Below are positions 2,872 to 28,947 of a stretch of 64,000 bases of DNA, piece by piece. Numbering within the stretch: position 1 is the stretch's first letter; each line of letters begins with the position of its first letter. Source of the DNA: Candidatus Falkowbacteria bacterium. GTDB taxonomy: Bacteria > Patescibacteriota > Patescibacteriia > CAIXNZ01. The notes beneath the pieces are model-generated. The model did not search any database. It was not told where the DNA came from and saw only the letters and a program-made list of their open reading frames with translations. The stretch covers positions 67,522 to 131,521 of the forward strand of contig CAVZGV010000004.1 of assembly GCA_963774955.1 (NCBI GenBank), given 5' to 3'. A program made the position numbers and the translations under genes.

Positions 2872-3726
2872 TTATTTTTTGAAATATTCATGAAATTTTG
2901 AGACCTTAACCAGTAAGTCTTTGGCCTTGGCTATTTTAGCCTGTTCGGCCGGAGATTTCAAAAAATCTTCCAAAGCACCTTTCATAGCAAAAAGTTGTCT
3001 TTCAATTTCTAATCTTAGTAAAGTTTTAATTTCCTTTTCCTTGGGACTAAGATCTTTAGCTTCTTTACTAGAAATTATCGCATCAGCCATTTTCTCTATA
3101 CTGCCATTAGCAATATAGACTTCTAGTCTGGGCATTACAATTCCCCGCAAATCATCGGCTTCTAAATATTTAAAGATAGCATCAACGTCAACAACCTTTT
3201 CTGATACTTCCTCATTGCTAAGCGCAAAATTTCCAGCTCTAATGTTATCGACAAAGCTCTGAGCTTTAAATTTAGCAGCATCAGCACTTAAAGCGTTGCC
3301 GACTTGAATAGCTAGTCCAATATTTGTTTCATCGTTAAGAGGTAAACTCAAAACCATATCTGCATTTTCCCGTAATTGATCAAATCTAGATAAAGAAAAA
3401 ACCTGCAAACCGCTGGCTGCTTCAGCAGCCGATCTTTCAAATAACTGCATTACACCTACAGCAGCCATTAGTTTTTCGCGGTACTGAAACATTTTCTGTT
3501 TATAGCGCCTATCTTCTTCATTTGTGACCCAGTCCTGATCTGTTTTTAATTCTTGTAAATCATCACTGGCAATATCTTTTTGGCTATCCAGAGCAGCCTT
3601 TCTCCATTCCGCCTGCAATTGGGCAATGGCCTTGATTCTAGCATCAGAACTTTCAACATCTAAGATACCATTTTTAAACTCCATATCTTCAATTACTCTC
3701 CCTTCAAAATCGCCTTTTTTAGCCAT
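2872..3726 (-). CDS. hypothetical protein (284 aa, alpha-helical, acidic)
   Basis: long ORF, host-like composition; no motif recognised. Confidence 0.5.
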   Translation of the reverse strand: MAKKGDFEGRVIEDMEFKNGILDVESSDARIKAIAQLQAEWRKAALDSQKDIASDDLQELKTDQDWVTNEEDRRYKQKMFQYREKLMAAVGVMQLFERSAAEAASGLQVFSLSRFDQLRENADMVLSLPLNDETNIGLAIQVGNALSADAAKFKAQSFVDNIRAGNFALSNEEVSEKVVDVDAIFKYLEADDLRGIVMPRLEVYIANGSIEKMADAIISSKEAKDLSPKEKEIKTLLRLEIERQLFAMKGALEDFLKSPAEQAKIAKAKDLLVKVSKFHEYFKK

Positions 3727-5432: not shown

Positions 5433-6047
5433 TTAATTCTCACTTATTAAATCCGGATAATTAGTATAAATATATCTATAATTCTCTGCGTCGGGAATTT
5501 TGTGCTTCATAGGATTTTCATAAATATAGCGTAAATGTTCGTCAAAATCATTTTCATTGCGGATGTAATGGTCGCGAAATGATTTTTGCCAATGGAATTT
5601 TAGAAAGTAAGTTTGGGCTTGGCCGTATTTGGCAATAAATAGCTTTCGCAATTCAAATAAATATTCGTAATGTTTTTCGATTAATCCCTCATAAATTTGA
5701 TATTTTCCCTGGTTTCGAACCCGAAGGAGCGATTTGCAAATCGCTCCTTCGGGTTCGTGACCGAGGATAAAATTTATGTGGCGGGTATAATGTCTTTTCA
5801 AAAATTGCATTATTTTGGATAAATCCTTTGATTCCATTGGAAAAAACATCAAATGAAAATGGTCTTTCAATATTACAAAGGCAAAAAGATCCATGTTCTT
5901 CATTTTCTTAACCAATCGTAATTCTTCAATAAACAATTTACAAAAAATCTGTTCCTTAAAATATTCAACACGATTATCGGCAACTGAGGTAACAAAATAT
6001 GTCGCGCCTTCAAAATATATTCTTTTTTGTGCCCCCTTGTGTAACAT
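5433..6047 (-). CDS. REP-associated tyrosine transposase (RAYT, IS200-like Y1/HUH transposase) with an internal roughly 50-aa insertion
   Basis: aligns to E. coli RAYT motifs: YFEGATYFVTSV, HUH motif DHFHLMFF, C-terminal SFRDHYIRN..EHLRYIYENPMKHK (catalytic Tyr region). Confidence 0.8.
   Translation of the reverse strand: MLHKGAQKRIYFEGATYFVTSVADNRVEYFKEQIFCKLFIEELRLVKKMKNMDLFAFVILKDHFHLMFFPMESKDLSKIMQFLKRHYTRHINFILGHEPEGAICKSLLRVRNQGKYQIYEGLIEKHYEYLFELRKLFIAKYGQAQTYFLKFHWQKSFRDHYIRNENDFDEHLRYIYENPMKHKIPDAENYRYIYTNYPDLISEN
5716..5757. repeat. perfect 42-bp palindrome inside the RAYT coding sequence
   Basis: CGAACCCGAAGGAGCGATTTGCAAATCGCTCCTTCGGGTTCG equals its own reverse complement; encodes EPEGAICKSLLRVR within an insertion not present in canonical RAYTs. 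Confidence 0.9.
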
Positions 6048-6966: not shown

Positions 6967-7150
6967 ATTGTTTCCTCCTGCTTTTCTGTTTTCCATTTTA
7001 TGTCTAATCTAAACATAATCACTATCATAAGTCAAACCTTGACGCCTACTCAATTTTACCCTATAATATAACCATAATCCCTAGCGGGATTTTTAGTTTA
7101 AATAGAAATTCCATAGTTATTAGTTGTTAGTTATAAGTTTTTAGTTAATT

Positions 7151-7243
7151 GCGCCGCCATCGTCTAGTGGTTAGCCTGTCCGCCTCTGGCGGAGACACCA
7201 GGTTTTTCCGCCAAAGGCGGATCCGCCTCCGGCGGACATCCTG
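7151..7243 (+). pseudogene. 5' portion (positions 1-43) of tRNA-Glu interrupted by two REP-like palindromic insertions
   Basis: GCGCCGCCATCGTCTAGTGGTTAG + insert + GACACCAGGTTTT + TCCGCCAAAGGCGGATCCGCCTCCGGCGGA + CATCCTG, compared with intact copy at 7516. Confidence 0.7.
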
Positions 7244-7255
7244 TTTAGAATTAAT

Positions 7256-7510
7256 ATGTATTATTTATATATTTTACTAAGCTTAAAAGATTCAGGTTAT
7301 TATATTGGAATAAGCGATAACCCGGAGAAAAGACTGCTTGAACATAACCAAGGTAAAACAAAATCCATAAAAAGCAGGATCCCATTTGAATTAAAATATA
7401 AAGAGGCATATAGTACTAAAACTGAAGCAAGAAAAAGAGAAATTTTATTAAAGAAAAATTATCAGATTCGCAAGGAATTACTTAATAAAATTGGATTTAA
7501 TCTTAAATAA
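7256..7510 (+). CDS. small GIY-YIG nuclease family protein inserted in the tRNA-Glu locus
   Basis: YYLYILLSLKDSGYYIGISDNPEKRLLEHNQG (GIY-YIG plus R..EHN catalytic motif), 84 aa. Confidence 0.75.
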   Translation: MYYLYILLSLKDSGYYIGISDNPEKRLLEHNQGKTKSIKSRIPFELKYKEAYSTKTEARKREILLKKNYQIRKELLNKIGFNLK

Positions 7511-7515
7511 ACCAC

Positions 7516-7587
7516 GCCGCCATCGTCTAGTGGTTAGGACACCAGGTTTTCATCCTGGTAACAGGGGTTCGATTCCCCTTGGCGGTA
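7516..7587 (+). tRNA. tRNA-Glu (anticodon TTC)
   Basis: manual fold: acceptor GCCGCCA/TGGCGGT, D-arm GTCTAGTGGTTAGGAC, anticodon stem CCAGG/CCTGG with loop TTTTCAT, T-arm AGGGGTTCGATTCCCCT; no encoded CCA. Confidence 0.8.
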
Positions 7588-8056
7588 CTAGAGCAAAAAT
7601 CACTTCTATCGCAGAGGTGTTTTTTGTTATATAAACTGTTTGATAATTTTTATTATTTAAGGTTTTTCCGCCAAAGGCGGACCCGCCTCAGGCGGGCATC
7701 CTGGTAACAGGGGTTCGATTCCCCTTGGCGGTACTAGAGCAAAAATCACTTCTATCACAGAGGTGTTTTTTGTTATATAAACTGTTTGATAATTTTTATT
7801 ATTTAAGGTTTTTCCGCCAAAGGCGGACCCGCCTCAGGCGGGCATCCTGGTAACAGGGGTTCGATTCCCCTTGGCGGTACTAGAGCAAAAATCACTTCTA
7901 TCGCAGAGGTGTTTTTTGTTATATAAACTGTTTGATAATTTTTATTATTTAAGGTTTTTCCGCCAAAGGCGGACCCGCCTCAGGCGGGCATCCTGGTAAC
8001 AGGGGTTCGCCTGCCCGCCGTAGCTTGAGCGAAGGCGGGATTCCCCTTGGCGGTAC
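7588..8056 (+). repeat. tandem repeat, 146-bp unit x about 3.4; each unit is a tRNA-Glu 3' half with a REP-like hairpin doublet in the anticodon loop plus a 73-bp spacer
   Basis: units start 7661, 7807, 7953 with 1-2 substitutions; last unit also has a hairpin insertion in the T-loop (8010-8039). Confidence 0.85.
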
Positions 8057-8092
8057 TGAGAAAAAACTCTGTTCCATTTAGGAAACAGAGTT
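8057..8092. terminator. bidirectional terminator
   Basis: aaaaaactctgtttcc...ggaaacagagttttt hairpin. Confidence 0.6.
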
Positions 8093-8093
8093 T

Positions 8094-8531
8094 TTAGTTT
8101 GAAAAATAGAAGAGGTCAATACAATTATCCAGATCATGGATTAAAACCAGTTTTTTGGCCAATGAAGGATCAATCCATTGAAATCCCTTATGCTCCGTTG
8201 GCTCAATCTTTACTTCTGGGCGTTTATCCAAAAGGCAGAAATAAATATGATAGATAAAATCTACCCCGCAATTTCTGACAAAAATCGTCTGGAAAAATAT
8301 GACTTCAGATAGGGGTATGACCAAGCCTGTTTCTTCAAAAATCTCACGTTGCATCGCCAAATGAGGCGATTGATCAGTAACGTCAACTTTACCAGAGGGC
8401 AATCCCCAGGTATTCCCTGACTTTTTATAGTCCTGTCTTAAAAGCAGCAAAATTTCTCCCTGGTCTTGCAAAAAACAGCCAACTGCTTCAAAAACAGGAT
8501 TAAAATCTGCAGGTTTTTCTTTAAAGATCAA
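8094..8531 (-). CDS. NUDIX hydrolase
   Basis: Nudix box GLPSGKVDVTDQSPHLAMQREIFEETGL. Confidence 0.75.
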   Translation of the reverse strand: MIFKEKPADFNPVFEAVGCFLQDQGEILLLLRQDYKKSGNTWGLPSGKVDVTDQSPHLAMQREIFEETGLVIPLSEVIFFQTIFVRNCGVDFIYHIYFCLLDKRPEVKIEPTEHKGFQWIDPSLAKKLVLIHDLDNCIDLFYFSN

Positions 8532-11073: not shown

Positions 11074-12064
11074 CGGACATTTAGCCTTAATTAACTTCGG
11101 ACTTAGCCAAGTTGATGAAATGACAGTCATTGTCTGCGATAAAAAAGGTCAACGCATTCCGGCCAAAGTCAGAGCCAATTGGATCAAAGAGCTGGCACCC
11201 AAGGCCAAAGTAATGATTGTTCCGGATATTGGCCAGGATGATGACTCTCAAGCTTGGGCCGATTACACCTTACAATTTCTGGGCTATAAACCTGACTGCG
11301 TCATCACTTCAGAAGCATACGGCAATACCTGGGCAGAATGCTTGAAAACTAAACATATCCTATTTGACCAGGCCAGAAACCTTGTACCTATCTGCGCTAC
11401 TAAAATTCGGGGAAATCCTTTGGCCAGTTGGGAATATTTACCGCCTCCGGTTCGCGCCTATTTTGCCAAAAGAATCTGCGTCATTGGAGCTGAATCAACC
11501 GGCACCACTACCCTGGCCAAAGACTTGGCTAAATATTACCAGACAACCTGGGTACCGGAATACGGACGCTATTATTCTGAAGCAAAACTTAATGCCAAGG
11601 ATAATAACAATTGGCGCACCGAAGAATTTTCCCACATTGCTGAAAAACAAAATCAGGCTGAAGATGCCCTGGCCCAAACCTGCAATAAAATCCTGATCTG
11701 CGATACTGATTCCTTTGCCACAGCGCTCTGGCATGAAAGATATCTGGGTAATTGGTCTGAACAAGTTGAAAAATTATTTTCAGACAGAAAAATTGATTAT
11801 TATCTGGTAACCAACGACGACATCCCCTTTGTTCAGGACGGTACCAGAGACGGCGAACACATCCGTCACCAAATGCAGCTGCGCTTTATCCAAGAACTAA
11901 AAAAAAGAAATAAAAAATTTACTGTTATTTCCGGAAATAAAGAAGAAAGGTTAACTAAAGCCGTTGAAATCTGCAACAAAATATTGGACGAACAGAATTT
12001 ATTTGCAAGTGCATATTTACAAACAAACAACATAACCATTAATAATAACGCTTATGTAAAATGA
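11030..12064 (+). CDS. nadR: NadR-type bifunctional NMN adenylyltransferase / ribosylnicotinamide kinase (no N-terminal HTH)
   Basis: GKFYPLHNGH (H/TxGH nucleotidyltransferase motif as in E. coli NadR); second-domain Walker A GAESTGTTTLAKDLA. Confidence 0.8.
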   Translation: MKNGIIIGKFYPLHNGHLALINFGLSQVDEMTVIVCDKKGQRIPAKVRANWIKELAPKAKVMIVPDIGQDDDSQAWADYTLQFLGYKPDCVITSEAYGNTWAECLKTKHILFDQARNLVPICATKIRGNPLASWEYLPPPVRAYFAKRICVIGAESTGTTTLAKDLAKYYQTTWVPEYGRYYSEAKLNAKDNNNWRTEEFSHIAEKQNQAEDALAQTCNKILICDTDSFATALWHERYLGNWSEQVEKLFSDRKIDYYLVTNDDIPFVQDGTRDGEHIRHQMQLRFIQELKKRNKKFTVISGNKEERLTKAVEICNKILDEQNLFASAYLQTNNITINNNAYVK

Positions 12065-12234
12065 AAATCCTTCTCCCCAGGAGCTGTGATTATGGGACAC
12101 GGCTCCTGTGACAGGAGGATATTATACCTTCGATTATCCAGATTGCTGGCATAAAGAAGGTAAAGGAAAGGTCTTTGAAAAAAAAGTATTGGGCTTCATT
12201 TCAACCAAACCAAACAAAAGGAGGTGGAAGTAAA

Positions 12235-12828
12235 ATGAAAAGAAAAAAGAACTTGCCCAAGCCGGTCAAATCCCAGCTGCGTATTATCGTGATCCGCTAC
12301 CGCAACAAACTCTATTTCCAGTTGGTTAACTTCCTATTCGACAAACTGGAAGCAAGAAATGTCAAGTATTTTTGCGGCAACGGCAAGATTACGGTTTTAC
12401 GTGACAGAAAAACCTTAGCCCGAATGGAATTTCGGGAAATCGAAGATGACCGAACCACAACCGATGGTTTCATTGAGCAATATCCCTGGGTGATCATGAA
12501 GCATGATGATTACTGCTTTTCGCGAGTACTTTTACCCCAATGGTTCAAACCAGGCGATATTTTACTCTTCAACTACACTACGCCGACTGACAAACTTTTT
12601 GCTCATCGGGTTGTGCCCGAAAAAATCACGCCCCAAGACGCAGCTGCCTATATGGTTTGGCCATATGCCTGGAGCATTTGTGCCTCAAAAGTCTACAATA
12701 ATTTAGGCAATCTGCTTTTGGGCAAACGCAAACAAGTGGATTTCAATTCCCTAATAGCAGCGTATACCCAAAAAGCTGTTTATCAGGGCAAAGAATTCCG
12801 AATCATTAACTTTTCCAAACTAGACTAA
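12235..12828 (+). CDS. hypothetical protein; first gene of GC-rich island
   Basis: GGAGG RBS before ATG 12235 (MKRKKNLPKP); GC jump at about 12200. Confidence 0.45.
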   Translation: MKRKKNLPKPVKSQLRIIVIRYRNKLYFQLVNFLFDKLEARNVKYFCGNGKITVLRDRKTLARMEFREIEDDRTTTDGFIEQYPWVIMKHDDYCFSRVLLPQWFKPGDILLFNYTTPTDKLFAHRVVPEKITPQDAAAYMVWPYAWSICASKVYNNLGNLLLGKRKQVDFNSLIAAYTQKAVYQGKEFRIINFSKLD

Positions 12829-12840
12829 AGGAGGACTGTC

Positions 12841-13446
12841 ATGAGAATCGAAGAGTACGCGAAATTGATAAGGACAGGACAGACAACGAAAAATCCTGTC
12901 ACGGGAATCTGCGGCCGAATAATTCGCGGCCAAAAACCGTCAGATTTTACCACCCTGACTGACGATCCTGAAAGAAAGATCGTCATGCTGGTGGATCCTG
13001 ACGGCCTGGCCAAATTGCTCGGCAAAACCGGATACCAAATGCTCATTGAAGTCGGCTACCAGCCGGATTACCTTGAGCATAAGGTCAAAGAAGGCAACCA
13101 ATTCAAACTGGCGGTCTTTCCCGAAGGCGGCGCTGCCCAGCTTGCGACCTGGGACAATGTCTTTGCCATGGTCAGTCAGGTCTATCCTGACATAACCTTC
13201 AGCACCCAGATCAAAAACGGCCTGAAGAAGCAAAGCTTTGACCAGATCGAAAAACAAGCCGGCTTCAAATTTCTTGAAGTGGAAAAAGCCGGAAAAAACG
13301 ATCCCCGCTTCATGACCTACAAGAAATTTAGAAATCCGGCCAGACCCTGGCCGACTTCCGCGCCTTCCTGTACTTCACCATCCATTTGCGTGAACTCTAC
13401 AGCGGCGACGGCTGGACCTATGACGACAAGGGCAATCGCGGAGTGA
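12841..13446 (+). CDS. hypothetical protein; C-terminal about 40 aa look out-of-frame (probable frameshift near 13325-13332 into the frame of the next gene)
   Basis: AGGAGG RBS; tail PARPWPTSAPSCTSPS is low complexity whereas the alternative frame from 13332 gives protein-like TLADFRAFLYFTIHLRELY and stays open to 13572. Confidence 0.35.
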   Translation: MRIEEYAKLIRTGQTTKNPVTGICGRIIRGQKPSDFTTLTDDPERKIVMLVDPDGLAKLLGKTGYQMLIEVGYQPDYLEHKVKEGNQFKLAVFPEGGAAQLATWDNVFAMVSQVYPDITFSTQIKNGLKKQSFDQIEKQAGFKFLEVEKAGKNDPRFMTYKKFRNPARPWPTSAPSCTSPSICVNSTAATAGPMTTRAIAE

Positions 13447-13571
13447 AAGAATACATCATCCCCAATCTGCCCATTGCCGACCTGGGTCCCAGCGAACTGA
13501 TCGACCTGGATATCCAACTGCCAACCGACATCAGCCCTGCCTTAAAAACAGGCAAAGAAAGGAGAACGACT

Positions 13572-14396
13572 ATGAAAAACCTGAAGATCCATATGCTGGT
13601 CATTGACCCGCAAAACGATTTCATGGACATCAATGGCGCCACCCTACCGGTGGCCGGAGCCAAAGATGACATGATCCGACTGGCGGGTCTGATCGACCGC
13701 GTCGGTCCCAAACTCGCGGACATCCATGTCACCATGGATAGCCACAGACTGCTGGACATCGCTCATCCCGCGTGGTGGGTGGACCAGAACCGGAACAACC
13801 CCGCACCCTTCACTATGATCACGGTCGACGACGTGGCCAACCGCATCTGGGTCCCGCGCAATCCCAACTTCTACGACCGCTGTCTGGCCTACGTCAAGGA
13901 ACTGAACCGCAAGGGCAACTACATGCTCTGCATCTGGCCGCCCCACTGCCTCATCGGCACCTGGGGACACAACGTATACCCCGAACTAAATGACGCTTTG
14001 CAGCTCTGGTCCGGCAAGGAATTCGCCATGGTCGACTACGTGACCAAGGGTTCCAACCCCTGGACCGAGCACTACGGCGCCATGGAAGCCGAGGTCCCGG
14101 ATCCTGAAGATCCCGGTACCCAGCTCAACACCAACTTTCTCAACATGCTGGCCGAGGCTGATATCGTCGCCATTGCAGGCGAAGCTCTCAGCCACTGCGT
14201 CAAAGCCACGGTTTCCCAGATCGCCGACAACATCGGCGAAGAGCACATCAAGAAGTTCCAGATCATCACCGATTGCACCAGCCCGGTCGGCGCCGTACCC
14301 AACGGCCCTGATTTCCCGGCCATTGCCCAGCAATGGTTGCTGGACATGCAAAAACGCGGCATGACCCTGGTCAAAGCCGACGACTTCCTGCGCTAA
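13572..14396 (+). CDS. isochorismatase-family cysteine hydrolase, nicotinamidase (PncA)-like
   Basis: MLVIDPQNDF, WPPHC, catalytic Cys context AGEALSHCV; AAAGGAG RBS before ATG 13572; frame is open upstream to 13332. Confidence 0.6.
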   Translation: MKNLKIHMLVIDPQNDFMDINGATLPVAGAKDDMIRLAGLIDRVGPKLADIHVTMDSHRLLDIAHPAWWVDQNRNNPAPFTMITVDDVANRIWVPRNPNFYDRCLAYVKELNRKGNYMLCIWPPHCLIGTWGHNVYPELNDALQLWSGKEFAMVDYVTKGSNPWTEHYGAMEAEVPDPEDPGTQLNTNFLNMLAEADIVAIAGEALSHCVKATVSQIADNIGEEHIKKFQIITDCTSPVGAVPNGPDFPAIAQQWLLDMQKRGMTLVKADDFLR

Positions 14397-14478
14397 ACCG
14401 GCAAACCCTGGGTTACCCCGCGTCGCGAGGTGACCCAGGGTAACCATCAATTTCCTAACCAAAGAAAGGAGAACGACC

Positions 14479-15234
14479 ATGCCACGCCTAATGGACAACG
14501 AAATGCAAGTTTCCAAAATTCCTGGAATGCAGGGATTTGCCTTCTCTGGCGTTCGGACCGAAAATCTCGGTGCCACCGAGTATACTCTGGTCACGATCGC
14601 GGTCGATGTTACCGGCTCGGTTGCCGGCTTTGAAAACGATCTGCGTAATTCGCTGATCGCCGCGGTCGAGGCCTGCAAAAAATCCCCGCGTTCCGATAAC
14701 CTGCTGTTACGGGTGATCATCTTCTCCACCAGCTACAAAAATGGGGTGGAAGAAATCCACGGGTTCAAACCCCTGGGTGAAATCGACCCGCAAGCCTATC
14801 CGCAGTTTCAGCCCGGAGGAGGCACTCCGCTTTTCGATGCCTGCTTCTCTGGCATCGGCGCCACCAACGTCTACGCCAAGAAGCTCATGGCCGACGATTT
14901 TCTGACCAACGGCATTGTCTTCATCATCACTGATGGCGAAGACAACGCTTCCCAGTCCACGCCCGCCATGATCAAGAAGGAAATCACCAAGGCCATCACC
15001 GGAGAAACCATCGAGTCCCTGATCACCGTCCTGATCGGCATCAACGCCAGCTACTGCAACCAAGCGCTGGATGATTTCCGCAATCAAGCGGGCATCAGCC
15101 AGTACATCGATGCCGGCCAGGCAACCAAAGGCAAGCTCGCTAAGCTGGCAGACTTCGTTTCTCAATCGGTTTCCAGTCAGTCCCAGGCTCTGGGTACTGG
15201 CGGACCGAGCCAGAAGATTTCTGCCACGATCTAA
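14479..15234 (+). CDS. vWA-domain protein (TerY-like) of a TerY-P triad
   Basis: MIDAS-like DVTGS, GGTPLFDA, IVFIITDGEDN. Confidence 0.65.
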   Translation: MPRLMDNEMQVSKIPGMQGFAFSGVRTENLGATEYTLVTIAVDVTGSVAGFENDLRNSLIAAVEACKKSPRSDNLLLRVIIFSTSYKNGVEEIHGFKPLGEIDPQAYPQFQPGGGTPLFDACFSGIGATNVYAKKLMADDFLTNGIVFIITDGEDNASQSTPAMIKKEITKAITGETIESLITVLIGINASYCNQALDDFRNQAGISQYIDAGQATKGKLAKLADFVSQSVSSQSQALGTGGPSQKISATI

Positions 15235-15351
15235 CAACCAAGGGAGATAATGGAGCAATCTGTTATCTCCCTATTTTTTCCCCACGTAGCGGGGTGAAAC
15301 CAGAAAGGCCCCGCCTACGCTAAAGCTTCTACGGACAAGGAGGTGAGATTC

Positions 15352-16227
15352 ATGATCCAGTTACAAACCGATCACTACTTCCACATTGGCAAAACGCACT
15401 TAACCAACGGTAAGCCTTGTCAGGATTATGCAATCTCACAGGTTATTAATGACGCAGCTATTGCGATCATCTGTGACGGTTGCTCTTCCGGCGGACAAAC
15501 CGATGTCGGCGCCAGGCTCTTAGGCTTAACCACCCAAGCTGCTTTGCTTAACCACTGGCTGACCAACGGCCAAATCATTCCGGAACCAACCAGCGCTGAA
15601 ATCAGGCTCAATCAAAAAATCAAACTAGCCTCTGCTTGTCAGCTTTTGGGACTGCAACCCAATGACTTGCTGGCCACCTGCGTTTACGCTTATTTCGGGC
15701 CGCAGGCCGGAATTATTCACATCCAGGGAGACGGAGTCGTTGCCCTCAAATTCACTGACCAACATATCCTGATGCACCGATTTGAGTGGCAAGACAATCG
15801 ACCCTATTACCCGGCTTATGCTGAAAGTCGCTTGGCTGATTTCATTGCCGCTCATGGTAATAATCTGCAAGCCTTACGTTTGAAATCCGAAACCTGGCAA
15901 ACCGTCGCGTCTCAACAACAGCTTTTACAGACCAACGACTACACGCTGAGCCAGGGACTGCAAGGCCTGATCATCAACTTGGACCAGACACTGATCAGCC
16001 AAGGGCTGGAATTCATTGCCGTCTTTTCCGACGGCGTCACCCAAATTGACAATGTGAATTGGCAAGACGCGGTGACTGAATTCCTCAGTTTCAAAAATAC
16101 CAAGGGTGAATTTGCCAAGCGCAGAATGATCCGCGGTATTCAGGATATGATCAAGGTTAATAAAGGTCCATTGGATGACATTGCTTACGCGGTAATTCGG
16201 TTGGACCAAAACCAAAAGGAGGTGTGA
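15352..16227 (+). CDS. PP2C-family Ser/Thr phosphatase
   Basis: IAIICDGCSSGGQTDVGARL and AVFSDGVTQ motifs; AAGGAGG RBS before ATG 15352. Confidence 0.55.
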   Translation: MIQLQTDHYFHIGKTHLTNGKPCQDYAISQVINDAAIAIICDGCSSGGQTDVGARLLGLTTQAALLNHWLTNGQIIPEPTSAEIRLNQKIKLASACQLLGLQPNDLLATCVYAYFGPQAGIIHIQGDGVVALKFTDQHILMHRFEWQDNRPYYPAYAESRLADFIAAHGNNLQALRLKSETWQTVASQQQLLQTNDYTLSQGLQGLIINLDQTLISQGLEFIAVFSDGVTQIDNVNWQDAVTEFLSFKNTKGEFAKRRMIRGIQDMIKVNKGPLDDIAYAVIRLDQNQKEV

Positions 16228-16228
16228 G

Positions 16229-17962
16229 ATGCCAACTATGCGTGGCAACATCGAAGTTGTCTTAGCCAACCGCGGAGCATTGACTCTGCGACCGGCGGAT
16301 CACGTTGCCACCGGGGGAGAAGGCTCGATTTATCGGGCTAAAAACACCATCATCAAATTGTATACTGACCCCAGAAAAATGAATCAGGATGGCATGGTTG
16401 AAAAGATCAAACTCTTATCAGCCATTAAGCATCCTTTCATTGTTTCGCCCACGGGGCTGGTAAACAATAATGCTGGTACTCCTGTTGGCTTTTACATGCC
16501 TTTTAGCGAAGGCGAACCCTTGCCCAGAGTTTTTACCAATGACTGGCGCAAACGCGAAAACTTTAATGACCAGCAGGCAAAAACTTTGGTTGACAACATG
16601 CGACAGGCAGTCGAAGTTGCCCACGCCAACCACGCGCTTTTAGTTGATGCCAATGAGATGAACTGGCTAGTATCTTTGGCCAAAGCAAATCAGCCCGAAC
16701 CCAGAATCATTGATGTTGATTCCTGGCAAATTGGACGCTTCCCGGCCAAGGTCATCATGCTGTCCATCCGCGATTGGCTCAATCCAAAATTTACCGAGTC
16801 GAGCGACTGGTTTAGCTGGGGAATTGTCACCTTCCAGGTCTTTAGCGGCATCCATCCTTACAAAGGAACACTGCCAGGCTACAAACCCAATCAACTTGAA
16901 GATCGCATGAAAGCCAAAGCCTCGGTCTTTTCCCAAGGTATTCAGCTGAATAAAGCGGTTCGGGATTTCTCAGTTATTCCCGGGCCCTTGCTCGACTGGT
17001 ATATTGCCGCCTTCCAGAACGGCGAACGGACCAAACCACCGTCACCCTTCGATTCCGGACTGACTCAAGCCAAAGTAGCCAGAGTACTGCATGCAGTTAC
17101 AACCGCAAGCGGCCTGCTGGTTTTCGAAAAACTATTGCAGCCGGTCAACGACCCAGTGATCAGAATCTTTCCTTGCGGCGTGGTCTTGCTGAATTCAGGT
17201 AAGCTGTTTGACTTACAAAAGCAATACCAAATCAGCACGGCCAAAACCAGGGACGTTGAAATCATCAGGATTGATAACGGCTGGCTCAAAGCCGAGATCA
17301 TTAACAAGCGGTTACAATTCAATTTCATCAATGCAACCAGCCTCAACGAAGAACCGCTTAAATTTGATCTGGCTGGTGAGAAGATCTTTCGCTGCGACAA
17401 TCGCTTGTTTGTCATCAATGAGCAAGGCCTGACCGAAGTGATCCTGAAATTCTTTTCCAAGCCGATCCTGGCTCTGGGCAAAACCTGGGGCGTGCTGGCG
17501 AATTCCATTCGCTGGTATGATGGCTTGGGCATCCAAAACACCATGGGTGCGACTTACATCATTGCTCCGTTCAATGACACTGCCTGCGCCGAAATCAGGG
17601 TGCCGGAACTTGATGGCTTAAAACCCATTAGCGCCAAAGCCGGTCAACGTTACATAGTTGTCATTGCTTTAGACAAGCAAGGCAACTACCAAAAAGTTGA
17701 GCTGACTCTGGATCGGGAATATAAAACCTACAAGGTCTGGCAGGAAATTGTTGACAGCCCTGATCTTAATCTGACCATCTTGCCAAAAGGTGTCTGCGCG
17801 ACAATTGTCAAAGACGGAGAGCTGAACATCTTTGTTCCGACCTCAAGCACCCAAAACACGGTCAAAGATAAAAACATCAGCACTGACATGCTTTTATACA
17901 ACTGGGAGAACAAAGTTGTTTATCTGCAAAACGGCGAAATCTGGGGCGTTAAAATGAAATAA
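16229..17962 (+). CDS. Ser/Thr protein kinase-like protein (N-terminal kinase fold, large C-terminal domain)
   Basis: Gly loop ATGGEGSIYRA, Lys in IIKLYTD, catalytic-loop-like HANHALLVDANEMNWLV. Confidence 0.5.
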   Translation: MPTMRGNIEVVLANRGALTLRPADHVATGGEGSIYRAKNTIIKLYTDPRKMNQDGMVEKIKLLSAIKHPFIVSPTGLVNNNAGTPVGFYMPFSEGEPLPRVFTNDWRKRENFNDQQAKTLVDNMRQAVEVAHANHALLVDANEMNWLVSLAKANQPEPRIIDVDSWQIGRFPAKVIMLSIRDWLNPKFTESSDWFSWGIVTFQVFSGIHPYKGTLPGYKPNQLEDRMKAKASVFSQGIQLNKAVRDFSVIPGPLLDWYIAAFQNGERTKPPSPFDSGLTQAKVARVLHAVTTASGLLVFEKLLQPVNDPVIRIFPCGVVLLNSGKLFDLQKQYQISTAKTRDVEIIRIDNGWLKAEIINKRLQFNFINATSLNEEPLKFDLAGEKIFRCDNRLFVINEQGLTEVILKFFSKPILALGKTWGVLANSIRWYDGLGIQNTMGATYIIAPFNDTACAEIRVPELDGLKPISAKAGQRYIVVIALDKQGNYQKVELTLDREYKTYKVWQEIVDSPDLNLTILPKGVCATIVKDGELNIFVPTSSTQNTVKDKNISTDMLLYNWENKVVYLQNGEIWGVKMK

Positions 17963-17975
17963 CGCCCAACGGGGG

Positions 17976-18013
17976 GAGAAATTGTACCACGTTACAATTT
18001 CTCCCCCACTTCT
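17976..18013 (+). terminator. rho-independent terminator after kinase gene
   Basis: ggggagaaattgta...tacaatttctcccc hairpin. Confidence 0.6.
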
Positions 18014-18290
18014 TTCTTCATAAAATTGCGACCAAAAATATTTTGGTCATAATTTTATACTTTAATCTGAGATTAAAGTGAAACTAAGTTCTTTAAAACT
18101 TATACTCAAAACATATTTTACCCCTCCTTGGGGGTTTGGGGGGCCGAACTAAGCGTCGTGATCAAAACCACGAACGAACCATATGCACTAGCGCATTGAG
18201 GCCCCCCAAAACTTTTTGCATACTTTTTTGTTCAAAAAAGTATGAAGCCGAAGGCTTAAAGTTCTCAGAACCTGAAAGGAGGACCTAATC

Positions 18291-18488
18291 ATGGAAACCA
18301 CCAAACACAACCGGGAAGTGGTCCAAAGAGTGGGCGACTTGGTCGTAGACCTGTCTAACGAAGTCGATCCGCTGCCCATGTCTGAACCGGCCAAAGAAGC
18401 CATGGTCATGGTCATGGTTGCCAACTGCCTAAAAAGCCAGGGCAACATTGTTACCTTTTGTCTGCCAACCTTCAAGACTGGCTTATAA
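18291..18488 (+). CDS. small hypothetical protein (65 aa)
   Basis: AAAGGAGG RBS; preceded by AAAGTTCT box; followed by terminator 18557-18603. Confidence 0.45.
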   Translation: METTKHNREVVQRVGDLVVDLSNEVDPLPMSEPAKEAMVMVMVANCLKSQGNIVTFCLPTFKTGL

Positions 18489-18769
18489 CCAAGGCAATCT
18501 GAGACAGACAAAAAACTTAAATTTTCAGCTAATTTAAGCTGAAATGTTTTACTAGCACCATTAGCGGGGAAAGTCGGTTTTCACCCCGGCTTTCCCCCTT
18601 TTTAAAACCTTGACAAATATAACATATTTTGATAAACTAATAAGTCGTCTTTTACCTAATCTTAGACGAGCAATAGAAAATTTTAACTAAATAATTTTGG
18701 TTAAATTTTTCTGGCTTTGACTCAGTCAAAACCACAGTCCTTTAAACCTTAATTTAAGGGAGAAATCCT

Positions 18770-19405
18770 ATGCCAAAACAAATCATTGCCGTCGGCGGTT
18801 CAGCGGCTAATCCGCCTCACTTGGGGCACTTAGCTTTGATCCAAGCCATGTTACAATCAAAAAAATTTTCCAAAGTAATGTGGATCCCTTCCGGGGTGCG
18901 CCCGGACAAGCCTGACTTCATTGATCCGCAACATCGCCTGGCCATGACTGAACTGACACTGCAATCGATTACAGACAAAAGATTCATTTTGAATCCCAGC
19001 GATGTTTATGGCAAAAACATGCCGACCATCAAATGGATGGAGATTCTCAAGGAACAAAATCCCCAAGCGGAAATTGTCTGGTATACAGGCGTTGATTCTG
19101 TTGTGCCGCAAAAAAAATTCGGCGGCCTATGTAAAATTGAAGCGCGCTGGCAACATGGGGAAAAATTAATTAAGAATTTTAAATTCCTAATTATCCCCCG
19201 CGCCGGTTATCCGCAGCCTTCAACTTTCAAAATTCCTCTTGAGGATTATGAAATCCTGGATGTGGAACTGCCTGACATTGCCAGTTCAAAAATTCGAAAA
19301 CTTGTTCAAGGAGGTAACAGCGATTTTGAAAAACTAGTAACGCCTGAAGTTTCCGCCTATATCAAGGTTAACAAACTTTACGGATGGAAAGGAGAAAAAG
19401 CATGA
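18770..19405 (+). CDS. nadD: nicotinate/nicotinamide mononucleotide adenylyltransferase (NadD-like)
   Basis: GGSAANPPHLGHL (HxGH nucleotidyltransferase motif), about 210 aa. Confidence 0.65.
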   Translation: MPKQIIAVGGSAANPPHLGHLALIQAMLQSKKFSKVMWIPSGVRPDKPDFIDPQHRLAMTELTLQSITDKRFILNPSDVYGKNMPTIKWMEILKEQNPQAEIVWYTGVDSVVPQKKFGGLCKIEARWQHGEKLIKNFKFLIIPRAGYPQPSTFKIPLEDYEILDVELPDIASSKIRKLVQGGNSDFEKLVTPEVSAYIKVNKLYGWKGEKA

Positions 19406-20007
19406 GCAAAGCAGTGATCACTATTGGCGAAAGCGACGCCCTGACCATTGTTGACGGGCAAAATGATTTCATCTTGCAGACCGGAACTCTTTATGTGACC
19501 GGAGTGGAAGGTGAAACCGACAACGAGGAAATCATCAAACGAATCCAGGAACTATGGTCAAAATTTTCAACCTGGAGAACCACGACTGAAGATTTCCATC
19601 CCGAGAATCACGTGGAACACACGATTTTTGGTCCCCATTGCATTGAAGACACCGCCGGCCAGGAATATCATCCTGACCTGATGAAAATATATGAGGACGC
19701 TGATCTAAATCTATATAAAGGCGAAAATCCGGACATTATTGCCTATTCAATTGCAACCAGCCCTGATTTTCATGACCACATTTCCGATTTGCGCCAACAT
19801 GGCATCAAGAGAGTCTTTCTTGTCGGCTGGGCTTTCACCCATTGTGTGGGGGAATCGGCCATTGCCTATGCGACCCAAGGGTTTGAAACCTTTGTCTTCC
19901 GCGATCTGTCCCGGAGCGTTCCTCCGCCCTATGGCGATCCGGATGCAATGACCAAAAAGCTGGAACTCTACGGGGTCAAGCTGATCACGTCTGACCAAAT
20001 CGCTTAA
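19402..20007 (+). CDS. pncA: nicotinamidase PncA (isochorismatase family)
   Basis: LTIVDGQNDF, GPHCIEDTAGQEY, catalytic Cys in LVGWAFTHCVGESAI; ATG 19402 overlaps nadD stop. Confidence 0.7.
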   Translation: MSKAVITIGESDALTIVDGQNDFILQTGTLYVTGVEGETDNEEIIKRIQELWSKFSTWRTTTEDFHPENHVEHTIFGPHCIEDTAGQEYHPDLMKIYEDADLNLYKGENPDIIAYSIATSPDFHDHISDLRQHGIKRVFLVGWAFTHCVGESAIAYATQGFETFVFRDLSRSVPPPYGDPDAMTKKLELYGVKLITSDQIA

Positions 20008-20232
20008 ACACTCAGGGTGAGTCCGATTAATTTCGGACTTACCCTTTAGAAAAATGTAACTAACCGCGTTGTCATGGTGAGTCCTTCGACAAAGCTCAGG
20101 ACAAGCATAACGAGTTTATGGTGAGCCAAGCCGAACCAAACCATGACATTACCCCCGCTCATTTGGTTCCATTTTTCTTCTCTCAAACAGGTTGAGAGAG
20201 AAAGTTCTTTCGAAAAACAAAGGAGAAATAAG

Positions 20233-21165
20233 ATGAAGACTCATAACTATCTCTGGCATGCCTTTGGAATGAACGGGAAAATTCTTAATTGGTGGCCTGC
20301 AGAAAAGAGTAAATTTTCAGCGCCACAAGTTGAACTGGACATTTCTGACATTCAATCCCAGCTTTTTGAGAAGGTGGGTGAGTGGGTAGGAGTTAAGGAA
20401 TCTGAAAATCTTGAAGATGAAGAAATGATCACCCAGCATGTGCTTGAAACTTACCAAGCCTGGGGCAAATTCGGACCTTATGGTGATTTAATCCAAATCT
20501 CCTATGATAGAGACCAGCGCAGAGCGCATATCGATTTCATCGGCCGCCTGGCCTTCCCCAAACCAGCCCTGGCTGCTGACCTGCTTCCGATCATTCGTGA
20601 CGCTGCAGGAAATTTGTTCTTCATCGGCATCACCAGAAAAAAAGAGCCTGGAATCGGCAAACCCGCCTTGATCGGCGGACATCTCGACATCAAAGGCTAT
20701 CATCTAGAAACCGCAGCCGAAGCCCTGATTCACGAAGCCAAAGACGAAGTCGGGCTTAAAATTACAGTAATGAAGCAACATGCGCGCGAAATAAAAACCA
20801 AGCCCTATATGCCCAGGATTCCTGTTTCAGTCGGCTTGAAGGGCTATCCCAAACTGCCAAGCGAACTGCTTCTGGTCGGAACTTTTGAAACCTCGGCCGA
20901 AGAAAAGCTGCTGCATCTGGGTACAAGGCGAGTTTCCCAAACCACAGCTTACACCATGATCATCGACATCCGTGATCGAATATTAACTCCAGATGATGTC
21001 GCTAAGCTGTTTTCCGCCGGAGATGATGCAGCCAGCATCTTTGTTCATCAAATCACAAAAAATCACTGGCTATTCGATTTATTCAATCGCGCCATCTATC
21101 ATCATCAAACGATTTATGTGGCAGCACTGTCACAACTCCGCCGAGAGAGCATAATCAACATCTAA
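20233..21165 (+). CDS. hypothetical protein with degenerate Nudix-like box
   Basis: ETAAEALIHEAKDEVGL resembles Ex7REUxEExGU; AAAGGAG RBS. Confidence 0.4.
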   Translation: MKTHNYLWHAFGMNGKILNWWPAEKSKFSAPQVELDISDIQSQLFEKVGEWVGVKESENLEDEEMITQHVLETYQAWGKFGPYGDLIQISYDRDQRRAHIDFIGRLAFPKPALAADLLPIIRDAAGNLFFIGITRKKEPGIGKPALIGGHLDIKGYHLETAAEALIHEAKDEVGLKITVMKQHAREIKTKPYMPRIPVSVGLKGYPKLPSELLLVGTFETSAEEKLLHLGTRRVSQTTAYTMIIDIRDRILTPDDVAKLFSAGDDAASIFVHQITKNHWLFDLFNRAIYHHQTIYVAALSQLRRESIINI

Positions 21166-21342
21166 AACCCAGGGTGATTCATCAAAGTTACAAACTGCGA
21201 TGAATCACCCTTAGAAAAATGCACCCAAACGCTTCTGTCATGGTGAGCATAGTCGAACCATGACGGGACATCCGCTGATTTGGTTCCATTTTTCTTATCT
21301 CAAGTATCTTGAGGTAAAAGTTCTTTACAAAGGAGTACCAAG

Positions 21343-22128
21343 ATGAAAAAAATATTTGTACTGGCTAAAAGAGATGACCAGCCTAAATTTGTCAAAGCCA
21401 AAGAAGAAATTATCGACTGGCTGCGCCAAAAAAACTGTCTGGTTACTGAAACCAAACAAGCTGAACTTATTTTGGTCTTGGGAGGTGACGGCACCATGCT
21501 CAAAGCGATCAGACAACATGGAGTCAAAGGGATTCCGTTTTGTGGTCTGAATTTCGGCCATAAGGGCTTTTTGCTGAACGAATATAAGCGCGGAGTACTA
21601 ACCCAAATCATGAAAAACAAACTGGAGTACATCACCGCGCCTCTTCTGCAGGCCAAACTATTCAACCGCAACGGCCAGGAACTGGGTTTGATTTATGCTT
21701 TCAATGATATCTACCTGGAACGCAGTACCACCAACACCGCCAAACTGCACATCACTGTCGGACAAAAAATCCGCTTTGATCCCCTGATTGCTGATGGTGT
21801 GATTGTTTCCAGCGCAGCGGGCTCTACTAGCTACAACGCCTCAGCCGGCGGCGTAGTTGTGCCGATTGAAACCAACAGTCTGATTTTGACGGGAATTTGT
21901 CCGGCCATTTTCCACCAGTGGAAAAGCAGCCAATTGGCGGCTGACAGCACCATTACCATCACAGCCACGGAACTGGACAAGCGTCCGGTTCGTCTGGTTG
22001 CCGACGGTGAAGAAGTGAAAAACGCAGTCAAGGCTGTCATTTCCTATTCGGACCAAAAAGTCCGGATCGCTTTTGTCACCACCCAGGATTTCCGGAGCAA
22101 AGTTCTTAACCTGCAATTTCCTGAATAA
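21343..22128 (+). CDS. nadK: NAD kinase
   Basis: LVLGGDGTML (GGDG), NDIYLER, 261 aa. Confidence 0.8.
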   Translation: MKKIFVLAKRDDQPKFVKAKEEIIDWLRQKNCLVTETKQAELILVLGGDGTMLKAIRQHGVKGIPFCGLNFGHKGFLLNEYKRGVLTQIMKNKLEYITAPLLQAKLFNRNGQELGLIYAFNDIYLERSTTNTAKLHITVGQKIRFDPLIADGVIVSSAAGSTSYNASAGGVVVPIETNSLILTGICPAIFHQWKSSQLAADSTITITATELDKRPVRLVADGEEVKNAVKAVISYSDQKVRIAFVTTQDFRSKVLNLQFPE

Positions 22129-22140
22129 AGGAGGCTACAA

Positions 22141-23376: not shown

Positions 23377-23424
23377 AAACCTGGCCCTCCGTATTTCATC
23401 AACGTTAGCGAACTTCGGAGGGCC

Positions 23425-23504
23425 CTCTACTCAAATTATTTTTAGGTGAACCAAAATCCAGAATCTATAATCTAGAATCTAGAATCCAAAAAAATAATTT
23501 AGGC
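23425..23504. repeat. intergenic inverted-repeat module, family A copy 1
   Basis: CTACTCAAATTATTTTTAGG ... (AATCTAGA)n ... AAAAAATAATTTAGG; preceded by terminator hairpin 23383-23424. Confidence 0.8.
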
Positions 23505-23542
23505 GGAGAAAGTTCTTTTCAAAAAAACAAAAGGAGAAAATC

Positions 23543-24694: not shown

Positions 24695-24737
24695 ACTCTT
24701 TAGGCCCAGTACCGAGCTTTGCTCTGGTGCTGGGCTA

Positions 24738-24813
24738 TCTACTCAAATTATTTTTGTTAATCAAAATCTAAAATCCATAATCTAGAATCTATTATCTACA
24801 AAAATAATTTAAG
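24738..24813. repeat. intergenic inverted-repeat module, family A copy 2
   Basis: CTACTCAAATTATTTTTG ... AATCTA repeats ... CAAAAATAATTTAAG; terminator hairpin 24703-24735. Confidence 0.8.
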
Positions 24814-24861
24814 TAGGGATAGTTCCTTAAATTTTAAAGAAACACAAAAGGAGAAATAAAG

Positions 24862-26639: not shown

Positions 26640-26676
26640 ATTTTTAGGGCGAATCCCGCGACGCAGGATTCGCCCC

Positions 26677-26778: not shown

Positions 26779-26851
26779 CGGAGACAGTTCTTTTCAAAAA
26801 CATTTAACCAAGTCGCCGTCGCTAAAGCTATGGCGACTAAAGGAGAAAAAA

Positions 26852-28934: not shown

Positions 28935-28947
28935 AAAGGAGTTCAAG

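Follow-up and report, generated by a model that had tools for sequence, protein, structure and literature searches.

Free-standing GIY-YIG and LAGLIDADG open reading frames (ORFs) of fungal mitochondria, of the Allomyces atp6 type, carry with them the end of their host gene and leave the resident end behind as a pseudogene. The phage enzyme SegB is about 220 amino acids (aa) long and contains a DNA-binding part. As a free-standing GIY-YIG homing endonuclease encoded in the tRNA cluster of phages T4 and T6, it cuts tRNA genes at a T-loop motif and promotes the inheritance of its own region (PMC2330249; PMC13096335). Additionally, SegB drives the recombination-dependent, ladder-like amplification of the segment that holds segB and a tRNA gene (PMC13096335). 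In Patescibacteria, bacteria of the candidate phyla radiation (CPR), self-splicing group I introns have been shown at 35/36 in tRNA-Asn as well as in tRNA-Asp; the endonucleases associated with them are of the HNH and not of the GIY-YIG type, and tRNA-Glu is unmentioned (10.1101/2025.07.03.662931; PMC13011429). Here, we analysed a tRNA-Glu locus in a stretch of 64,000 nucleotides from Candidatus Falkowbacteria bacterium (assembly GCA_963774955.1, contig CAVZGV010000004.1, positions 67,522 to 131,521 of the forward strand; this whole stretch is called the window below), in which a gene for a very small GIY-YIG nuclease lies between a partial and an intact copy of the tRNA gene. The window has about 37% G+C and, as the relatives of its GIY-YIG protein are annotated as Candidatus Parcubacteria, Falkowbacteria and Patescibacteria, it can be assigned to a CPR bacterium.

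The locus is probably a tRNA-Glu gene whose anticodon was invaded, between its positions 35 and 36, by a homing-type selfish cassette with a minimal Slx1/UPF0213-like GIY-YIG nuclease as its sole protein. Cassettes of this kind recur, and they apparently represent a variant, not described before, of selfish nuclease elements by which tRNA genes are overwritten. No account of GIY-YIG cassettes in bacterial tRNA genes was found in the full-text literature, the coverage of which was incomplete, so that an earlier description is possible. According to this reading, tRNA sequence carried by the cassette would rebuild an intact gene right after the ORF, and the functional gene would consist entirely of cassette-side sequence. 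What is left of the resident gene, its 5' part (7153-7243) and its 3' half (7989-8056), would form dead flanks, further decayed by inserts in their D and T loops, and a doublet of small hairpins would stand at each copy of the 35/36 split point. The 146-bp units that follow the intact gene would represent an ORF-less companion on the 3' side, amplified by unequal or break-induced recombination; since three units are near identical, the amplification would be recent.

The features of the locus are collected in Table 1. The intact tRNA-Glu begins 5 nt past the stop codon of the GIY-YIG gene, and its 5' part (7516-7550) adjoins the first 146-bp unit. Tandem Repeats Finder (TRF) described the array as 3.1 copies of a 146-bp period with 99% matches (7551-8009). 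Each unit is composed of tRNA positions 36-73 (38 nt), a 71-nt spacer with a terminator-like hairpin, the heptanucleotide AGGTTTT (positions 29-35) and a 30-nt doublet, so that further copies of the doublet lie at 7667-7696, 7813-7842 and 7959-7988. Both split-point junctions contain the same 14 nt of tRNA (AGGTTTT and CATCCTG) around the doublet, whose second hairpin has three positions that are not the same at the two junctions. The promoter ahead of the locus is probably, as judged from its sequence, the original promoter of tRNA-Glu, now placed 5' of the whole arrangement; in naive alleles, a promoter lies directly 5' of the tRNA. The hairpin with a T run that follows the promoter is kept in locus L002, a similar one is found in the naive allele L094, and it may serve as an attenuator-like leader of the tRNA-Glu transcript. 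At the other end, the terminal 3' half is probably the original resident one. T-loop inserts are also seen in the terminal 3' halves of L003, L009, L019 and L091 and in the tRNA-Cys locus of the window.

Most elements of this layout had been pointed out in a first-pass annotation made from the sequence alone, and they stood up to computation. The 84-aa GIY-YIG ORF was recognised by Pfam and the intact tRNA-Glu(TTC) 3' of it by ARAGORN and the Rfam model; the tandem 146-bp pseudo-tRNA units were recovered by TRF with the period of 146, direct comparison resolving three exact units plus the last 3' half, the T-loop hairpin of which was also found. The interrupted 5' copy with its two inserts was correctly seen, although its extent had to be corrected by direct comparison (42 nt and not 43, starting at 7153 and not at 7151). 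The same annotation had asked whether tRNA scanners would call the tandem units as functional genes with introns, and they do not: ARAGORN called no tRNA in the interrupted copies, and the units reached 26.2 bits with Infernal, under the gathering score of 29. The tRNA-like fold behind this latter score, in which a hairpin arm is paired with the acceptor 3' strand, was rejected: the arm, TCCGCCA, is by coincidence the same as the acceptor strand of this lineage, and where relatives have another acceptor stem, the hairpin sequence does not change along with it.

Table 1. Coordinates of the tRNA-Glu locus and of the transposase gene upstream of it (window positions).
Feature	Position	Strand	Evidence and remarks
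REP-associated tyrosine transposase (RAYT-like) gene; REP, repetitive extragenic palindrome	5433..6047	-	NCBIfam NF047646 (REP_Tyr_transpos), 95.3 bits, cutoff 80; Pfam Y1_Tnp
Sigma-70-like promoter TTGACG-17-TATAAT	7039..7067	+	11/12 consensus positions match; same leader in relative L002
Hairpin + T run, AATCCCTAGCGGGATTTTT	7076-7091		Directly 3' of promoter; 5' tRNA copy ~60 nt further on
Displaced 5' part of tRNA-Glu	7153..7243	+	tRNA positions 1-22 (7153-7174), 23-35 (7194-7206) and 36-42 (7237-7243), 100% identical to the intact gene; two inserts; homologous 5' copies in all relatives
19-nt insert, CCTG + hairpin TCCGCCTCTGGCGGA	7175..7193	+	At tRNA 22/23 (D loop/stem); L017 and L050 with doublet at same site
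Hairpin doublet H, TCCGCCAAAGGCGGA + TCCGCCTCCGGCGGA	7207..7236	+	Two 15-nt hairpins, 30 nt, between anticodon positions 35 and 36
GIY-YIG nuclease gene, 84 aa	7256..7510	+	Pfam PF01541, E=3.4e-15
Intact tRNA-Glu(TTC)	7516..7588	+	ARAGORN; 67.2 bits with the Rfam tRNA model
Three exact 146-bp units	7551..7988	+	7551-7696, 7697-7842, 7843-7988; one single-nucleotide polymorphism (SNP) at 7757
Terminal tRNA-Glu 3' half (36-73)	7989..8056	+	29-nt T-loop hairpin insert 8010-8038, CCTGCCCGCCGTAGCTTGAGCGAAGGCGG; 3' flank unlike that of the units
Terminator-like hairpin + T run	8067..8095	+	After the terminal 3' half; differs from the terminator in the 146-bp units; read from sequence

The same architecture occurs at tRNA-Glu of related genomes. 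The comparison covered the contigs encoding nine homologs that are 58-85% identical to the window protein (loci L001-L019), together with the tRNA-Glu loci among L020-L036. In every relative with DNA the order was fixed: tRNA-Glu positions 1-35, a hairpin doublet or triplet, positions 36-42, the GIY-YIG gene and the intact tRNA-Glu. The closest relatives that share this architecture comprise about 20 species-level CPR lineages and some other phyla. The 5' copy of the relatives ends at position 42, or at 47 or 53 in two lineages, and the intact tRNA-Glu lies 4-27 nt past the GIY-YIG gene in all loci of the nine homologs except L001, where a second interrupted 5' copy is located between the ORF and the tRNA. 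The sequence of the partial copy follows the tRNA of the given genome, as exemplified by the acceptor GGCCCCG in L003 and the D loop AGCCCGGTCA in L009. Tandem arrays are present in independent assemblies, among them L033 with at least three 126-bp 3' units, L003/L004/L005/L008, and L014 compared with L015. Units vary in number within populations (one unit of 5' copy and GIY-YIG gene in L015 and two in L014; tandem units in L006/L007 versus L003). Comparable 3' units were found in L003, L030, L033 (in tandem) and L036.

Some relatives carry additional structures around the tRNA gene. An inverted copy of the T arm, GGGGAATCGAA, is located 3' of the intact tRNA-Glu in L009 (2880-3030), in L091/L093 and in L014 (~3220-3240). 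In L009 and L091/L093 the inverted T arm is followed by an insert of 100-130 nt and then by the 3' end of the tRNA, which together form a larger palindromic structure. The Saccharibacteria contig L019 (652-900) has another small and more divergent GIY-YIG gene, placed just past the 3' remnant of tRNA-Glu.

Evidence that the cassette had been inserted into these genes, and did not arise only by local duplication, comes from unoccupied alleles and from the mismatch between nested and flanking copies. Among 14 metagenomic loci with an identical 51-nt core of tRNA-Glu, 12 consist of a plain promoter and tRNA gene without a GIY-YIG gene or tRNA fragments (two of these 12 naive loci have the acceptor stem of the window), and the remaining two are occupied. 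At the two occupied loci, the GIY-YIG is only 45% identical, and one more co-varying doublet, again of its own sequence, is present. Between deep lineages, GIY-YIG is far better conserved than the neighbouring housekeeping protein TsaD, from whose identity its own is decoupled: between the window and L003 it amounts to 77% for GIY-YIG and 53% for TsaD, and between the window and L009 to 75% and 49%, respectively.

In L030, the two flanking halves pair with one another (GCCGCCA/TGGCGGT), and the intact tRNA between them has a different acceptor stem, GGCCTCA/TGAGGCT. The same relation is found in L036, with GGCGCCG/CGGCGCT in the flanking halves and GGCCCCG/CGGGGCT in the intact gene. Because the halves match each other and not the intact tRNA, the flanking pieces represent the halves of an older resident gene that was split at 35/36 by a cassette bringing its own tRNA. 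The window holds a comparable case at tRNA-Cys. The intact gene (33136-33207, GGCCAGA/TCTGGCC) is nested between the halves of an older allele at 33077-33110 (positions 1-35, GGCCTGA...) and 33280-33378 (...TCAGGCC); a 28-nt hairpin (33252-33279) marks the 35/36 junction, an insert of about 60 nt (33300-33360) interrupts the T loop, and no GIY-YIG gene is present. At tRNA-Ala (44360-44433), a 5' copy with a 35-nt hairpin in the D loop (~44246-44320) precedes the intact gene and a diverged 3' half (44455-44500) follows it, with a compensatory difference at 5:68 between the old halves and the intact gene. A further tRNA gene of the window, tRNA-Arg (44106-44177), is followed by the same hairpin doublet as at tRNA-Glu (44186-44215) and by a duplicated T loop and 3' end of tRNA-Arg (44216-44237).

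The association with tRNA genes extends over the wider protein family. A scan of one genome per GTDB species with a query built from six closer sequences gave 71 loci, encoding proteins of 34-85% identity, in many CPR classes, Verrucomicrobiota, Balneolaceae, Pirellulales, Brocadiaceae and others. In 37 of the 71, the start of a tRNA gene on the same strand falls within -25 to +104 nt of the GIY-YIG stop codon, and the ORF runs into the tRNA in 17 of these 37; in another 10 of the 71, a tRNA gene on the same strand ends 1-119 nt before the GIY-YIG start codon. An antisense tRNA beside the GIY-YIG gene was found at none of the 71 loci. The first-pass annotation had suggested checking whether tRNA genes are the regular neighbours of small GIY-YIG genes, and the 47 of 71 loci that abut a tRNA on the same strand answer this in the affirmative. 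At 34 of these 47, a partial copy of the same tRNA lies across the ORF.

The occupied genes are those of tRNA-Glu, Gln, Ala, Ser, Asn, Pro, Arg and Asp. The form with a 5' part ahead of the GIY-YIG gene and an intact tRNA behind it occurs at Glu, Gln, Ala, Ser and Asp, and its mirror image, with the intact tRNA first and a 3' part last, at Pro, Asp, Arg and Asn. A small GC hairpin is located at the inner end of each partial copy, and at Gln and Ala it stands in place of the entire anticodon arm. Loci from different phyla have a second hairpin family, TCCCGAT-GNNC-ATCGGGA, in common. In the Gln and Ala cassettes of L048, L071 and L065, the GIY-YIG frame enters the tRNA by 10-25 nt and stops in the D arm (...GVAKW* over GCCAAGTGGTAA). 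When the 18 GIY-YIG loci without a nearby ARAGORN tRNA were rescanned with Rfam, one proved to lie inside a 23S rRNA gene and one next to a tRNA cut by the contig end, and the rest gave none. The rRNA case, L053 (1-2760; match at 2001-2204), from a Patescibacteria metagenome-assembled genome, has a 49%-identical homolog inside the 23S rRNA gene, so the family also occupies rRNA genes.

The window protein is a bare GIY-YIG domain of 84 aa, in which the Pfam scan detected no other domain. Its catalytic residues are conserved, Y5, Y16, G18, R26, H30, N31 and E62 being invariant among 15 aligned sequences. A profile search against PDB returned the structural-genomics UPF0213 proteins 1ywl (2e-13) and 1zg2 (4e-12) and SLX1 (2e-5 to 1e-3). 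The AlphaFold2 model has a pLDDT of 92.5, and Foldseek placed 1zg2 best and Slx1 next (TM score 0.64-0.68), with I-TevI and UvrC weaker. By this model, the protein is best placed in the minimal UPF0213/Slx1-like branch of the GIY-YIG superfamily, and the Slx1-like fold suggests that the nuclease recognises DNA structure. Prokaryotic Slx1-like proteins were described as the minimal stand-alone form of the superfamily in a phylogenomic study of 2006 (PMC1564403). The protein belongs to a large wider family of 4,402 clusters at 50% identity (E<=1e-3), and the exact sequence of the window protein had no record in the look-up. NCBIfam, PADLOC and PHROGs gave no match for the protein, which therefore does not belong to a catalogued defence or phage family. 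In viral contigs, neither relatives of the protein nor the combination of tRNA-Glu with the doublet was found; a phage vector is thus not supported.

The hairpin pattern CCGCC..GGCGG matched the window 19 times against 0.45 expected, so the feature is not due to chance. At tRNA-Glu, the doublet keeps its position at 35/36 across all lineages, whether the anticodon is TTC or CTC, and its structure stays the same while the sequence of the stems varies by lineage: TCCGCC/GGCGGA, TCAGCC/GGCTGA, TCACCC/GGGTGA, TCCCGC/GCGGGA, TCCTCC/GGAGGA and TCCGGC/GCCGGA. Covariation was assessed on 13 distinct doublets, a set limited by choice to clean 30-nt ones (L025 and L036 carry slightly imperfect doublets). 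All 156 of 156 cells were paired, 7 of 12 pairs showed compensatory double changes, and no one-sided change occurred; no shuffle reached these values. RNA folding of the window doublet yields alternative long-range pairings, since both hairpins share one stem, and the two-hairpin structure is accepted because of the covariation across lineages and not on the basis of folding in the window. G-T or G-U pairs were absent from the 156 hairpin cells (0 of 156), a lack that would fit a constraint on DNA, or on both strands, better than a constraint on RNA only. In the dead copies, hairpin inserts occur in all three cloverleaf loops, at 22/23 in the D loop, 35/36 in the anticodon loop and 55-57 in the T loop, a distribution that would suit events taking place on single-stranded, folded DNA or on DNA that is extruded. 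Across the roughly 450 kb of DNA that was fetched, doublets were nearly confined to tRNA pseudo-copies. They could be a recognition structure for the nuclease, a block against re-cutting or recombination at spare sites, or independent REP-like elements moved by a RAYT.

Several hairpin-bearing sites of the window lie outside the tRNA genes proper. A doublet at 51847-51876 is placed in frame in a TIGR01177/Trm14-like methyltransferase ORF (51465-52538, minus strand), where it encodes PPEADPPSAE between the duplicated target sequences KSKVES and KSKVMK, in a manner that recalls the palindromic elements inside Rickettsia genes. Because of this in-frame copy with its short flanking duplication, the doublet appears able to move on its own. 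On the minus strand at 40316-40390, a tRNA-like 3' fragment (TGGTGCGCGAGACCGGAATCG...), called neither by ARAGORN nor by Rfam, contains a doublet in its T loop (40336-40366). Another type of hairpin doublet is located at 26718-26747.

How such a cassette might spread can be pictured in a few steps. The nuclease would break the DNA of a tRNA gene at or near a cloverleaf loop, and an occupied copy would be the template for repair, for which the tRNA halves next to the cassette would provide portable homology arms. The cassette could thereby enter the same tRNA gene of unrelated genomes, no other similarity between donor and recipient being needed. The tRNA promoter would drive expression of the ORF, which ordinary tRNA processing would then part from the tRNA, and repeated breaks would drive the changes in tandem copy number. 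In this scheme, we infer the cleavage target, the routes of homing and expression, and the role of the hairpins. The further notion that the locus exemplifies an unrecognised class of minimal mobile element, a cassette of about 0.35 kb made of an 84-aa nuclease, a doublet and tRNA sequence, which splits the tRNA gene inside the anticodon, carries portable arms and crosses genomes and phyla, is possible but put forward only tentatively. The nuclease of such an element may sense the cloverleaf or cruciform extruded at tRNA genes, or the hairpins, and not a sequence.

The idea of a GIY-YIG-bearing element residing in the tRNA gene had been proposed in the first-pass annotation, and it gains from the conserved architecture, the absence of the cassette at 12 of 14 loci and the older flanking alleles seen elsewhere. 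The accompanying proposal that the element supplies the 3' part of the tRNA failed: the cassette brings the 5' part or the whole tRNA, and the 146-bp units are a second, ORF-less component across the split point. The later tandem amplification of the array segment was borne out by the near-identical units and by the varying copy number in other populations, and the suggestion that the GIY-YIG protein is the homing nuclease is upheld as likely by the comparison across genomes. The term REP-like for the hairpins is not established, as they do not flank the RAYT gene located 1.1 kb upstream and the doublets lack a GTAG head. Nor is the doublet an incidental REP hit: all lineages have it at exactly 35/36, with stems that co-vary, and it is therefore a component of the system.

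Some observations weigh against a homing cassette. The 5' copy, the intact gene and the 3' units of the window tRNA-Glu are of one allele, and local duplication alone could build the locus; the case for insertion therefore rests on the other genomes and on the tRNA-Cys locus. The intact tRNA at occupied loci has exactly the naive sequence, while the displaced copies are interrupted by hairpins at 35/36 and in the T loop, so an enzyme that homes simply by sequence would go on cutting the locus that it occupies, and no basis for immunity emerged. The protein, a bare catalytic domain without a DNA-binding or specificity module, has no evident way to read a long site, and to our knowledge every characterised GIY-YIG homing endonuclease has a DNA-binding module. 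Thus, of the features expected of a homing endonuclease, sporadic presence at a conserved target is observed (12 naive loci and 2 occupied ones), and a DNA-binding module is not. Nested patterns are found at tRNA-Cys and tRNA-Ala without a GIY-YIG gene, of which the window has only one, so the nuclease would have to act in trans there or to have been lost. In addition, the nearby RAYT could explain the hairpins independently, and as no relatives were found in viral contigs, no vector between phyla was identified there.

The problem of self-immunity would disappear if the module acted at the RNA level. The transcribed, hairpin-blocked 5' copy would then be a non-cleavable tRNA mimic, working as a decoy, an antitoxin or a leader that controls the nuclease, possibly an anticodon nuclease, in an addiction module similar to the type III toxin-antitoxin systems, in which RNA antitoxins are repeated. 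In favour of such a module, the ORF without exception abuts the tRNA and has the same orientation, the hairpins are located exactly where anticodon nucleases cut (with the anticodon arm replaced altogether at Gln and Ala), and their structure is kept by compensatory changes. We nevertheless regard it as unlikely. The absence of G-U pairs from all 156 hairpin cells is at odds with an RNA constraint, which would normally permit them; the older-allele flanks and the patchy presence are left unexplained; and the tandem units lie downstream and not upstream, and are missing in most lineages. We also know of no GIY-YIG enzyme that acts as an RNase.

Neutral decay is improbable as well. Here, REP-like hairpins mobilised by the RAYT would enter the loops of redundant tRNA copies and provoke slippage duplications, and the GIY-YIG protein would be an ordinary repair nuclease encoded beside tRNA-Glu. 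A RAYT gene is indeed present at 5433-6047; it contains within its reading frame a 74-nt near-perfect palindrome (5700-5773). The same doublets at other sites of the window, flanked by short duplications (one following tRNA-Arg and one within the methyltransferase gene), the presence of inserts in all three cloverleaf loops, as the targeting of single-stranded DNA predicts, and the identity of allele among all tRNA-Glu pieces of the window would also agree with such decay. However, no hairpin of the H type was found within several hundred nt in the searched flanks of the RAYT gene, and GTAG does not occur in the doublets but only in the longer hairpins at 8010-8038 and 44271-44299, in the loop. 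No RAYT was seen at the loci of the relatives. The link to the RAYT as a possible mobiliser of the hairpins is therefore weak: the hairpins do not flank the gene, the loci of relatives are without it, and the doublets are found nearly only in tRNA pseudo-copies. Moreover, decay would not account for an architecture that recurs in lineages whose loci show no RAYT, for hairpins that vary in sequence by lineage and keep their position and structure, for GIY-YIG relatives placed alike at many tRNA genes across phyla, or for the existence of naive alleles and of flanking halves that differ in allele from the intact gene.

As tRNA genes are classic integration sites, the partial copies might also be read as attL/attR remnants of an island or a prophage that inserted into and excised from tRNA-Glu. 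A large serine recombinase is encoded just 3' of tRNA-Glu in L002 alone, and L009 and L010 differ 3' of the tRNA. Such an origin is very unlikely: the part of the window from 4.4 to 11 kb encodes no tyrosine or serine recombinase, the unit length is a mere 146 bp, what integrases duplicate is the 3' part of a tRNA and not a 5' copy ahead of a small ORF, and the pattern is tied to GIY-YIG across 47 loci. Small introns in CPR tRNA genes were reportedly mentioned by Castelle and colleagues in 2018. It is highly improbable that the interrupted copies are working tRNA genes with small structured introns of this kind, or that they hold a degenerate remnant of a group I intron at 35/36, although this position is a proven group I site in the tRNA-Asn and tRNA-Asp of Patescibacteria and small structured tRNA introns have been reported in CPR bacteria (10.1101/2025.07.03.662931). 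The copies are truncated, one lacking the 3' half and the others the 5' half; ARAGORN calls none of them, their Infernal scores stay below the gathering score, and an uninterrupted gene is always present. A group I intron was rejected after no match to Rfam Intron_gpI was obtained at E<=10; there is also no room for a ribozyme core beside the ORF. Finally, mis-joined or collapsed repeats are an extremely unlikely cause, even though the contigs of L006, L007 and L010-L013 end in or just past repeats, because the architecture is present in many independent assemblies and samples, including long contigs and one complete genome (record CP011209, L025), a single SNP distinguishes the units, and the junctions are nucleotide-precise.

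Beyond the tRNA genes, the region of the window from about 12000 to 31000 has 43-54% G+C, against about 37% elsewhere. It encodes an NAPRTase, an NAD synthase, an ADP-ribosylglycohydrolase and a nucleoside deoxyribosyltransferase-like protein, pointing to NAD salvage and ADP-ribose metabolism, together with a PP2C phosphatase and a kinase. This block, the end of which lies some 2 kb short of tRNA-Cys, may have been acquired as an island.

If the tRNA-Glu locus was indeed invaded by a homing-type cassette, a biological role could be assigned to an orphan family of small stand-alone GIY-YIG proteins (UPF0213/Slx1-like), and even the single-copy tRNA genes of minimal genomes would be subject to overwriting by selfish DNA. 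Elements of the minimal mobile class considered above would provide a bacterial route to tRNA genes in pieces, and through them the tRNA alleles of the tiny CPR genomes would steadily be replaced. The cassette would also account for the tRNA fragments and hairpin-laden pseudo-tRNAs that confuse the annotation of CPR genomes, and it offers a concrete, testable example from bacteria of a long-held notion, the splitting of tRNA genes by mobile elements at the anticodon loop. A nuclease of 84 aa that, lacking a DNA-binding domain, can find tRNA genes or small hairpins would be of enzymological interest.

The element is neither an integrase element nor a group I intron, and it is not shown to be a REP/RAYT system. 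With the tRNA-targeting integrative elements (prophages, islands, tycheposons) it shares the insertion into tRNA genes, their rebuilding by sequence borne on the element and the direct repeats of tRNA at the borders. Those elements, in contrast, use tyrosine or serine recombinases, span kilobases and involve the 3' part of the tRNA, whereas the cassette has no recombinase, measures about 0.35 kb, brings the 5' part or the whole tRNA and splits the gene inside the anticodon. The group I introns of Patescibacteria occur in the same phylum and at the same insertion point in the anticodon, but they are ribozymes in sole-copy genes, a few of them with an HNH endonuclease; in the locus described here, there is no ribozyme, and function is kept by a duplicated DNA copy. 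REP/RAYT systems and the palindromic elements of the Rickettsia type resemble the doublets as short GC-rich palindromes dispersed in an AT-rich genome, sometimes in frame in genes, and a RAYT gene is present. Unlike REPs, the doublets are without a GTAG head, are not placed around the RAYT gene, are nearly confined to tRNA pseudo-copies and co-occur across lineages with GIY-YIG and not with RAYT. The disruption of an archaeal tRNA gene by a mobile element (tRNA-Thr of Caldiarchaeum; PMC3293823) and split tRNA genes present a similar picture, a 5' tRNA fragment ahead of a mobile element beside a functional gene, which bears on the ways in which tRNA genes become fragmented; that element is, however, archaeal and encodes a recombinase, and the introns there are of the bulge-helix-bulge type and spliced by a dedicated enzyme.

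The remaining parallels are with nuclease genes that travel with a piece of their target. In the fungal mitochondrial ORFs of the Allomyces atp6 type, as in the cassette, the piece that travels with the nuclease restores the gene, and the displaced part stays as a dead fragment; the targets there are organellar protein-coding genes, hairpins are lacking, and the endonucleases are larger. SegB shares with the cassette a GIY-YIG gene placed among tRNA genes and the tandem amplification of the segment. It differs in being phage-borne, in not splitting the tRNA gene and in having no hairpin-bearing partial copies, while the nuclease of the window is a bare domain of 84 aa, encoded in the chromosomes of CPR and other bacteria. 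SegB is thus a direct precedent for nuclease-driven breakage and amplification at tRNA genes.

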